Source: Candidatus Sigynarchaeum calidifontis (lineage in GTDB: Archaea > Asgardarchaeota > Lokiarchaeia > Sigyniarchaeales > Sigyniarchaeaceae). Taken from it: a stretch of DNA of 36,337 bases. Both the position numbers and the translations under genes were made by a program. Under the pieces are notes generated by a model. It saw only the letters and a program-made list of their open reading frames with translations. It was not told where the DNA came from and did not search any database. Below, piece by piece: positions 8,455 to 22,957 of this stretch; within the stretch, counting starts at the first letter, position 1, and the number at the start of each line of letters is the position of its first letter. The stretch is taken from positions 1-36,337 of the forward strand of contig JAUQYZ020000050.1 of NCBI GenBank assembly GCA_030587475.2, written 5' to 3'.

Positions 8455-8769
8455 ATGAAGATTACCACGTCTTCACAAGCAAAAGAATACATCGAGAACG
8501 AGGAAAAGAAACGCGGCAAGCAATGTGTCATCGCAATCGCGGAATCGCAATATCGCAGTTGATCGGGCGCGGTCTGTAGCACCATCGTTGTCGATCTCGT
8601 TGACTCTGATGCTTTCTATCTCGAAAGTCACCGGGACGAGTTCACCAGGGAAGATGGTGGCTTCAGGCCCGTGTACGTCCTCAACAGCGTCCGGAAAAGC
8701 ATCCCCGAAACGTTCGAGGTTGACGCGTATGGTTGGGGGCCATTTAAATCCCTGGTCTTACGCCGGTGA
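8455..8769 (+). CDS. Putative selenoprotein (HesB-like / CC-Se-type small protein), 104 aa, in-frame UGA (8560-8562) read as Sec36
   Basis: GAGG SD and ATG at 8455. The frame stays open for 68 codons after the UGA: MKITTSSQAKEYIENEEKKRGKQCVIAIAESQYRS-U-SGAVCSTIVVDLVDSDAFYLESHRDEFTREDGGFRPVYVLNSVRKSIPETFEVDAYGWGPFKSLVLRR. The N-terminus follows the HesB/IscA-like pattern. A SECIS-like hairpin lies immediately downstream. Confidence 0.8.
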
Positions 8770-8778
8770 TTTCCCGTG

Positions 8779-8850
8779 ATCCCGCTCCGATGATCCCGCC
8801 CCGTCAAACGAACGGGGGGTGGGGGACGGGGACTGCAAGTCCCGCGGGAT
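8779..8850 (+). promoter_or_regulatory. Eukaryote-like SECIS element in the 3' UTR
   Basis: Helix I CTCCG(8785-89)/CGGGG(8827-31). Core ATGA(8790-93) opposite GA(8825-26). Helix II TCCCGCCCC(8794-8802)/GGGGTGGGG(8816-24). Apical AAA at 8806-08, 12 nt after ATGA. Outer helix ATCCCGC(8779-85)/GCGGGAT(8844-50). Confidence 0.8.
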
Positions 8851-8904
8851 TTTTTATCTCGATGATTGTCACGAAAACGAAGTGAATATCAAAGGTGCAG
8901 GCAC

Positions 8905-9348
8905 ATGGCGGATACGAGAACTGAAGATGACGAGCTGGATCAAATCCGGCAAAAGAAGCTAGCGAGCTTGATGAGAAGACAAGCATCGCCATCATTGCCA
9001 GGCGATGGAAAACCAATTCATGTCGAGTCAGTGGAACAATTCAAGGAAATCATAGAGAATTACCAAGACACGCCCATTCTCATCGATTTCTGGGCGGAAT
9101 GGTGCGGGCCATGCAGAATGCTCGCGCCCGTATATGAAAAAATTGCCGAGATGTACAAGAACCAGGCCATTTTCTTGAAGGTTAACTCGGACGAGCTTGC
9201 ATCGCTCGCCCAGTATTTCCGCGTGACGAGCATACCAGATGTCGTGCTTGTCCATCACAAGGAGGTCAAGGCGGTCTGGATCGGGCTGCGCCCTCTGGAA
9301 TTTTACAAGAGGGAGCTCGACAACCTGCTAGCATCCGTCGAACCGTGA
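8905..9348 (+). CDS. trxA: Thioredoxin
   Basis: IDFWAEWCGPCRMLAP active site and SIP cis-Pro motif. Archaeal-type N-terminal DELDQIRQKKL extension. Confidence 0.95.
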   Translation: MADTRTEDDELDQIRQKKLASLMRRQASPSLPGDGKPIHVESVEQFKEIIENYQDTPILIDFWAEWCGPCRMLAPVYEKIAEMYKNQAIFLKVNSDELASLAQYFRVTSIPDVVLVHHKEVKAVWIGLRPLEFYKRELDNLLASVEP

Positions 9349-22503: not shown

Positions 22504-22835
22504 ATTCAGATGGTTACTGTTCATAAAAATGTTCTCAATCAACCCGATTGCATGTCGAGAATGGATGAAATATGAGTTTGATGGTGAAATCCAAGCAATT
22601 TCGATACAAAACGTATCAACATGCTTTGACTTGACGAGAGAACCACCAGTCATTTTTTTTGGCAAGAATCTTCTGTCTTCATGGTAGTCTGAGGCACAAG
22701 CATACTCTCGATGGATTCCATCAACCATGTCATGTTTCTAAATCATTCCAACCCTTTTTGGGATTAATGCTTGATAAAAAAGAGCTTGAATATGGAAAAA
22801 TGAAAAACATTAAAGGAACTAACGGAATTCAAATG

Positions 22836-22906
22836 AATGGAGATGAAGCTCTCCGAGAAAATTTTTTTTGTTCTAAACTGCCTTCTGAGAGGATGATAGC
22901 TTCTAC
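22836..22906 (+). ncRNA. Fluoride riboswitch (crcB motif) upstream of the short ORF / P-type ATPase
   Basis: GGAGATGAAGCTCTCC-GAGAAAATTTTTTTTGTTC-TAAACTGCC-TTCTGAGAGG-ATGATAGCTTCTAC. P1 is GGAGA/TCTCC and the pseudoknot is GAAGCT/AGCTTC. Confidence 0.88.
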
Positions 22907-22957
22907 CCAGAGCATCTTGTATAGTATCAAGCAATATAATTCAAGACGGTGAAGCTA

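Follow-up and report, generated by a model that had tools for sequence, protein, structure and literature searches.

The question raised by this locus is which RNA structure, behind an archaeal gene with an in-frame UGA codon, would mark that codon for selenocysteine (Sec). The gene lies at 8455-8769 and is followed by a structured element at 8778-8851, both on the + strand of the window, by which we mean the whole stretch of 36,337 nucleotides analysed here (contig JAUQYZ020000050.1 of Candidatus Sigynarchaeum calidifontis). In a Sec insertion sequence (SECIS), an AUGA/GA quartet forms a kink-turn (K-turn)-like motif that, together with an A-rich loop at a fixed distance, marks the messenger RNA (mRNA) for the Sec elongation factor, by which Sec-tRNA comes to decode an upstream UGA. 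The Asgard SECIS is regarded as a bridge to the eukaryotic signal. Comparison with orthologous loci and with other selenoprotein genes makes it very likely that 8778-8851 is the SECIS of gene 8455-8769, belonging to the eukaryote-like Asgard class and built as a three-way junction with a third arm. The eukaryote-like reading of the core is already known (Mariotti et al., 2016, PMC4989117; Huang, Xiao and Zhang, 2024, PMC11227280); the gene family served here is unlisted, and the third arm refines the model. The gene and the parts of the element are as follows.

8455-8769, +: predicted selenoprotein gene of 104 codons to which the element belongs; Sec codon UGA 8560-8562, stop codon UGA 8767-8769
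8778-8785, +: 5' strand of the outer (closing) helix, GAUCCCGC, paired with 8844-8851 in the minimum free energy (MFE) fold, pair probabilities 0.6-0.9
8786-8789, +: 5' linker UCCG, of which CCG may pair with CGG 8827-8829 just beneath the K-turn (p 0.15-0.57)
8790-8793, +: AUGA, 5' half of the K-turn core, exactly 20 nt past the stop codon, read directly from the sequence
8794-8824, +: SECIS arm, helix II (8794-8802/8816-8824) with the 13-nt loop GUCAAACGAACGG (8803-8815), present in the MFE and centroid folds
8825-8826, +: GA, 3' half of the K-turn core, read directly from the sequence and followed by CG
8829-8843, +: second hairpin, the third arm, with stem GGGAC/GUCCC and loop UGCAA (8834-8838), pair probabilities 0.9-0.98
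8844-8851, +: 3' strand of the outer helix, GCGGGAUU, partner of 8778-8785
8850-8855, +: run of six T (T6) in the sequence itself, overlapping the outer helix at its end

The reading frame runs from the ATG at 8455 through a single in-frame TGA to its terminal TGA, and translation with TGA as U gives 104 residues with the Sec codon in the context YRS-U-SGAVC. A search of 400 Asgard genomes returned orthologues in 35, all of a single class, and these share the motif R-[GS]-U-[SC]-G. The TGA occupies the same alignment column in nearly every orthologue, and on both sides of that column open, conserved protein sequence was seen across dozens of genomes. Matches of the product to Pfam Fe-S_biosyn (HesB; E 0.078) and to NCBIfam NF041239, a CC/Se motif (seleno)protein family (E 0.021), both fell under the cut-off. 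As far as the published texts go, the family is absent from the seven Asgard selenoprotein families of Huang et al. (2024), from a 2026 review and from the families in Mariotti et al. (2016). For annotation, 8455-8769 is best entered as a single selenoprotein gene accompanied by its SECIS. The UGA of the core (8791-8793) is in the same frame as the stop codon at 8767-8769, eight codons further downstream, so that read-through of that stop would end at the SECIS core. A relative's contig from the same family, WJJB01000328.1, bears the orthologous gene and its SECIS under the label 'Candidatus Bathyarchaeota archaeon'; it is probably from a mislabelled bin or a mis-binned contig.

Direct reading and folding bore out all the coordinates and motifs of an initial annotation made from the sequence, which had described a eukaryote-type AUGA..AAA..GA SECIS in the 3' untranslated region (UTR) of a UGA-containing archaeal gene; anatomy, position and conservation agree with that description. 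Helix II has nine base pairs without mismatch, two of them G.U, at pair probabilities of about 0.8-0.9. The MFE fold places two further pairs within its apical loop, which accounts for the upper helix of about 11 bp in that description. The loop opens with GUCAAAC and ends in G, and its AAA (8806-8808) lies 12 nt after the core A8793. By analogy with the known SECIS and K-turn motif, sheared pairing in tandem is possible between GA 8825-8826 and the bases G8792 and A8793. The methanogen GAA/A type had been set aside in the initial annotation, and no such bulge appeared in the MFE fold, in the centroid or by inspection.

The second hairpin had been described as a competing one, and this view did not hold. 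Outer helix, helix II and second hairpin coexist both in the MFE fold and in the ensemble; the sole contested base is G8829 (C8787-G8829, p 0.15), and forbidding the hairpin costs 11 kcal/mol. In a 251-nt context fold (8700-8950) the outer-helix probabilities dropped to about 0.35, while those of helix II and of the hairpin remained high. The third arm thus drawn stands on the non-bulged (3') strand, 2 nt past the core GA, and is enclosed by the outer helix. The short CCG/CGG stem beneath the core, which reappears as CCG/UGG in two close orthologues, is optional, because it is missing from more distant ones.

We examined the 3' flanks of the orthologous genes for the same parts. Of 30 fetched loci, a scripted search recognised the arm ([AG]UGA, helix, AA loop, GA) in 22, at most some tens of nucleotides from the stop codon, and a few further loci showed it by eye with a bulge or a variant core. 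Either GA or AA stands at the 3' core position in the orthologues and in other SECIS elements. All three helices are kept, with differing sequences, in the four closest relatives, as in the following comparison.

Outer helix: here GAUCCCGC; relatives GUGCCCCGC/GCGGGG-CAC, GGGAC../..GUCCC and CCAGGAA/UUCCUGG
Helix II: here UCCCGCCCC; relatives UCCCGCCCG, ACCCACACC and AUUCCUGC
Second hairpin: here GGGAC/GUCCC; relatives GGGAAC/GUUCUC and GGGACG/CGUCCU

In AT-rich genomes the arm has the exact dimensions of the Lokiarchaeal SECIS (lokiSECIS) of Mariotti et al. (2016), a 9-bp stem with an 11-nt loop of the form AxAAAxxxxAG. A hairpin followed 20 of the 22 arms, against 10.7 expected from shuffled flanks, and a hairpin together with an enclosing helix followed 17 of the 22, against 3.0 expected. 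Across nine elements including 8778-8851, two-sided changes were seen at 21 of 22 pairs, among them all eight outer-helix pairs and all nine pairs of helix II. In this alignment 96.2% of cells pair, compared with 62.8% in shuffles and 43-51% in slid controls, figures that lean toward the structure model, since the alignment was fitted to it. Plain MAFFT alignments of mixed elements and of AT-rich orthologues misplaced gaps in the helices and were left out of the counts. A conserved core and covarying helices in orthologous loci, on which the initial annotation had let its reading depend, were seen both across the orthologues and in the nine-element alignment. Two loci behind the same Sec gene, L006:1814-1879 (genome G005, 'CR_4'-like) and L038 (G023), carry an outer helix, an arm with an A-rich loop and a GC-rich second hairpin around a missing core; they are possible core-less SECIS variants.

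The same architecture recurs within the genome. A three-helix descriptor gave 18 folds in the whole genome and 6-10 in shuffled genomes. Six of the 18 matches were convincing, and these, together with the vhuD element, lie directly behind genes whose in-frame UGA occupies a Sec position that is known or conserved. The initial annotation had asked for similar elements behind other UGA-containing genes, and they were seen at selD, hdrA, vhuD, vhuU and two unnamed genes, which are listed here.

selD, contig C31: UCACGGG / UUG / AUGA / arm with AAA / GA / hairpin CUGCCG-AGCAA-CGGCAG / CCCGUGA
hdrA (Sec in DDCSIUILGP), contig C153: ACUCGAG / CAA / AUGA / 9 bp / CCAAAGGCAGC / 9 bp / GA / U / GGAGGC-AGCAA-GCCUUU / CUCGAGU
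vhuD, contig C47: textbook K-turn, then CGUCGC-CGCGA-GCGACG, closing pair AUCCC/GGGAU
vhuU-like gene (NF041786, E 7.5e-13), contig C15: found by the descriptor
small CxxU gene, contig C249: a descriptor match
gene with two adjacent TGA codons, contig C14: found by the descriptor

Folded independently, six of nine elements tested showed the three-way junction as their MFE structure. We also built a covariance model, R1, from element 8778-8851 and its closest orthologue. With filters off, R1 recovered other elements in the fetched loci at E values from 2e-5 to 1.1 and missed that of selD; on the whole genome with the first-look filter, which loses divergent copies, it returned only element 8778-8851 itself. 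A loose descriptor of the arm alone was dropped as too noisy (260 matches, with 167 in a shuffled genome).

In three of these genes (hdrA, C153:14294-14297; vhuD, C47:28179-28181; the unnamed C14 gene, minus strand at 2447) the gene's own stop UGA is the UGA of the (A/G)UGA core, and the last codons hold part of the outer helix. The C14 gene is a 154-codon frame on the minus strand (locus positions 2447-2908) with two adjacent in-frame TGA codons after Cys (..TTDPG-C-U-U-HKFEE..) and a GUGA-type three-armed SECIS behind it. It had no Pfam or NCBIfam match and is a candidate Cys-Sec-Sec selenoprotein. The C249 locus holds a 74-codon gene (1687-1908) with the CxxU motif IVYCETUGG, without a family match above cut-off, and a type II three-armed SECIS at locus positions 1960-2040, 61 nt past the stop codon.

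The third arm was further examined in other gene families, using 3' UTR alignments of selD (17 genomes) and vhuD (27 genomes) made by plain MAFFT without structure fitting. Behind the selD arms, a hairpin was present in 19 of 19 cases (8.8 expected) and a hairpin with an outer helix in 16 of 19 (2.4 expected). In the selD alignment RNAalifold called outer helix, SECIS arm (here of type II) and second hairpin alike, with 9 of 19 pairs compensatory. Pairing reached 96.3%, a value that none of 500 shuffles attained, compared with 87.5% in shuffles and 26-48% in slid controls; 35 cells changed on both sides, against 10.1 in shuffles. The vhuD alignment represents the class on which lokiSECIS was defined, and here RNAalifold called helix II and the hairpin unaided. 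The outer helix was not called in these 27 genomes; when it was added, pairing was 93.1% compared with 85.8%, again reached by 0 of 500 shuffles, and 37 cells changed on both sides, against 11.0. The vhuD layout, CCGAAA / UAG / AAU / GA - 9 bp - 11 nt - 9 bp - AA / CUA / ACCC..GC..GGGU / UUUCGG, forms a perfect three-way junction, with a 3-bp stem at the start of one arm.

The hairpin loops of these elements contained GC in 56 of 73 cases, where about 13 were expected, and most of the others contained GU. Many of the third-arm loops are N+GNRA pentaloops (UGCAA, CGCAA, UGCGA, CGUAA). In a second Asgard class, the stop codon of selD (loci L127-L139) is at the same time the UGA of a GUGA core, and behind this core a hairpin with a CGCAA, CGCGA or AGCAA loop again follows. 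This class is probably Thorarchaeia, going by the GUGA_GA cores reported by Huang et al. (2024). A further Asgard class yielded no selD among the 31 genomes searched. By these comparisons of aligned sequences, the outer helix and the second hairpin form a conserved, covarying third arm in a three-way junction, with a G-pyrimidine step in its loop. Judged in the same way, the three-way junction is a common SECIS architecture in the class, recurring behind selD, vhuD and the family of gene 8455-8769. The initial annotation had offered a three-way junction as one variant fold for this locus; the junction found support, and it is not peculiar to the locus.

The genome is a metagenome-assembled genome (MAG) of 4.99 Mb in 269 contigs (GC 54%, 89% complete, 5% estimated contamination) within Lokiarchaeia, and the link to Lokiarchaeota that the initial annotation drew from Mariotti et al. 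(2016) fits this Asgard host. A Sec transfer RNA (tRNA-Sec) was found, and its contig also carries a SepSecS match of 472.8 bits. The selD gene (206 bits) has an in-frame TGA as Sec codon. A SelB/EFSec-type factor scored 241.7 bits, just under the cut-off of 242.25, and a PSTK-like gene scored 103 bits, well under its family cut-off. A search of the genome for an additional L7Ae-domain protein, the kind to which SBP2 belongs, found none beyond two ordinary L7Ae-family genes (frames of 123 and 125 aa, the size of ribosomal proteins), and since the MAG is 89% complete the absence of SBP2 is not proven. The literature gives no SBP2 in archaea, Asgard archaea among them, and archaeal EFSec is reported not to bind the methanogen SECIS element.

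In the mechanism that we propose, element 8778-8851 on the mRNA would direct tRNA-Sec and an EFSec/SelB-type factor to the UGA at 8560-8562, 230 nt upstream, and this codon would then be decoded as Sec, as anatomy, position and conservation suggest. The G.A pairs would form the K-turn. The third arm might fix the K-turn geometry in the manner of a k-junction (a K-turn with a third helix on its non-bulged strand), or might dock an archaeal SECIS-recognition factor, or both. The T run behind the element would be merely a local terminator.

Several observations weigh against this reading. The MFE of -39.7 kcal/mol corresponds to z = -0.72 relative to dinucleotide shuffles, and 47 of 200 shuffles fold equally well; because the fold energy is not significant, the reality of the element rests on comparative evidence. 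Because the compared relatives are not independent of one another, the shuffle statistics make the significance look greater than it is, and in AT-rich genomes the outer helix is often merely an A run opposite a U run, easily a chance product. A three-helix fold without the AUGA/GA core occurs in two to four orthologous loci. The bulge ahead of the G.A pairs has 2 nt if CCG and CGG are paired and 6 nt otherwise, compared with 3 nt in a canonical K-turn, and the apical loop has 13 nt with GUC ahead of AAA, compared with the 11-nt loop and A-rich start of lokiSECIS. Rfam returned no SECIS family in the whole window at the gathering score, where a fluoride riboswitch was the only match, and none at E <= 10 in 8700-8920, where only chance matches to miRNA and sRNA families appeared; the match to SECIS_1 (RF00031) for which the initial annotation had suggested looking was thus missing even at that threshold. 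The fluoride riboswitch (RF01734) lies at 22830-22912 on the + strand and scored 38.8 bits against a gathering score of 34 (E 1.9e-7).

Three other explanations were weighed against these data. On one of them, the plain AUGA..GA stem-loop would be the SECIS, and the hairpin with the T run would be a separate 3'-end module for termination or stability, perhaps tuning read-through into the thioredoxin gene. The T6 run does stand directly behind the element, and runs of at least five T follow 10 of 22 orthologous elements, mostly in AT-rich genomes; yet none of the three closest loci has such a run, and all three retain the hairpin. The coupling to termination or to trxA read-through that the initial annotation had entertained is unsupported, because the T run is not conserved. 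The outer helix that RNAalifold left uncalled in vhuD would suit a separate module; the hairpin, however, sits inside a covarying closing helix and not after it. The thioredoxin gene (8905-9348; Pfam Thioredoxin, E 1e-24) lies 139 nt downstream and also follows the gene in four other genomes, but selD and vhuD, whose downstream neighbours differ, are equally followed by the hairpin. Archaeal termination, as far as known, needs oligo-T and no hairpin, and a stability role would leave the conserved G-pyrimidine loop step unexplained. We consider this explanation unlikely, and T6 8850-8855 is probably an ordinary archaeal oligo-T terminator outside the conserved element. Thioredoxin occurs within 1.5 kb in 7 of 30 loci of the family, downstream at the window locus and at L034, L037, L048 and L049 (five genomes: this one, G001, G002, G009 and G013) and as a divergent neighbour in two genomes (L043, L044). 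Its recurrence suggests a functional link between the proteins rather than with the RNA, and hints at a shared redox function. By inspection, a TATA-like A/T box about 25 nt before the thioredoxin start is common to the window and a same-genus relative, which suggests that this gene has its own promoter.

That the element is a chance fold of a GC-rich spacer, with the UGA either a true stop or an error of sequencing or assembly and no SECIS function, would agree with the weak z score, the lack of an Rfam match, the 6-10 descriptor folds in shuffled genomes and the estimated contamination of the MAG. This idea has next to no probability in our view, since the comparative data already contradict it: dozens of genomes have the UGA in one and the same codon column, flanked on either side by open, conserved protein sequence; compensatory changes accompany the conservation of the element; the genome holds Sec machinery; and known selenoprotein genes are followed by the same architecture. 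The remaining possibility is an L7Ae/L30e K-turn site regulating neighbouring genes, for instance by translational feedback, and unrelated to Sec decoding. AUGA/GA has a K-turn sequence, archaeal L7Ae binds K-turns, and the genome has its two L7Ae-family genes; the convincing descriptor matches and the vhuD element, however, lie directly behind in-frame-UGA genes, and what marks SECIS elements, but not L7Ae sites, is an apical loop rich in A that keeps a constant spacing to the core. We regard such a site as highly improbable. The reading of 8778-8851 as a three-armed SECIS is retained.

A conserved, covarying third arm would alter the picture of the pre-eukaryotic signal, since the published Asgard models, as far as their texts go, use core, upper stem and loop only. 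It would also provide a concrete RNA bait for the missing recognition factor and a far more specific search pattern for hidden selenoprotein genes. We tentatively propose, with somewhat less than even confidence, that the ancestral Asgard SECIS, possibly pre-eukaryotic, was a k-junction-like three-way junction whose third arm displayed the G-pyrimidine loop, often as an N+GNRA-type pentaloop. In archaea, which lack SBP2, that arm would act as the recognition site of a SECIS-binding factor or as a tertiary clamp required by such a factor, and element 8778-8851 would be one typical copy.

We compared the element with known systems. No second hairpin, closing helix around two arms or three-way junction is described in the texts of Mariotti et al. 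(2016), Huang et al. (2024), a 2021 paper and the 2026 review, figures and supplements aside. A full-text literature search for SECIS with a three-way junction returned nothing relevant, and one for lokiSECIS returned the original 2016 paper only. Mariotti et al. (2016) described eukaryote-like SECIS elements in Lokiarchaeota; the stem has 9 bp, and the loop, of 11 nt, is rich in A over its first five positions and closes with G. Element 8778-8851 has in common with lokiSECIS its 3' UTR site directly behind a Lokiarchaeal selenoprotein gene, AUGA before and GA after a 9-bp stem, and an A-rich loop ending in G. Existing models miss both: SECIS search tools failed to detect the Lokiarchaeal elements in that study, as Rfam did here. 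The text of Mariotti et al. (2016), apart from its figures and supplements, presents a stem-loop only, without closing helix or second hairpin.

Huang et al. (2024) reported eukaryote-like SECIS elements for 85% of 1439 Asgard selenoprotein genes. Their type I eSECIS-like model has a GA_[G/A]A core, a loop of 8-20 nt and an upper stem that spans 7-15 bp and tolerates up to two mismatches, and the element agrees with it in every respect (core, 9 bp, no mismatches, 13-nt loop). As given in the text, that model consists of core, upper stem, loop and a simple lower stem, without a third helix. With the methanogen (euryarchaeal) SECIS the element shares its nature as an archaeal 3' UTR structure serving an upstream UGA. 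It has neither the GAA_A bulge between stems nor the short GC-only upper stem of that type, and its only GAA (8811-8813) sits in the apical loop.

The k-junction (Wang et al., 2014, PMC4005666; Li et al., 2023, PMC10573300) has a third helix on the non-bulged strand at tandem G.A pairs and, in three dimensions, a kink with cross-strand A-minor contacts; known examples are in TPP riboswitches, rRNA and DUF-3268 RNA, and none is in a recoding signal. At the level of predicted secondary structure the topology of the element matches, with tandem G.A pairs, an extra helix opposite the bulge and a short connector, whereas its bulge would have 2 or 6 nt instead of about 3. In vhuD a 3-bp canonical stem parts the K-turn from the junction, giving a K-turn beside a three-way junction, so that 'k-junction-like' is the most that fits. 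With the eukaryotic type I SECIS (RF00031), the element shares the AUGA/GA non-Watson-Crick core, an unpaired AAR about 12 nt past the core (the type has it at 9-12 nt), the 3' UTR location and, by analogy, a presumed action at a distance on the UGA. Eukaryotic elements are recognised by SBP2, which is reported from no Asgard genome, and their Rfam covariance model did not match; helix II is shorter here, at 9 bp. The hairpin inserted on the 3' strand beneath the core means that helix I would be interrupted by a three-way junction, unlike in the eukaryotic type I element.

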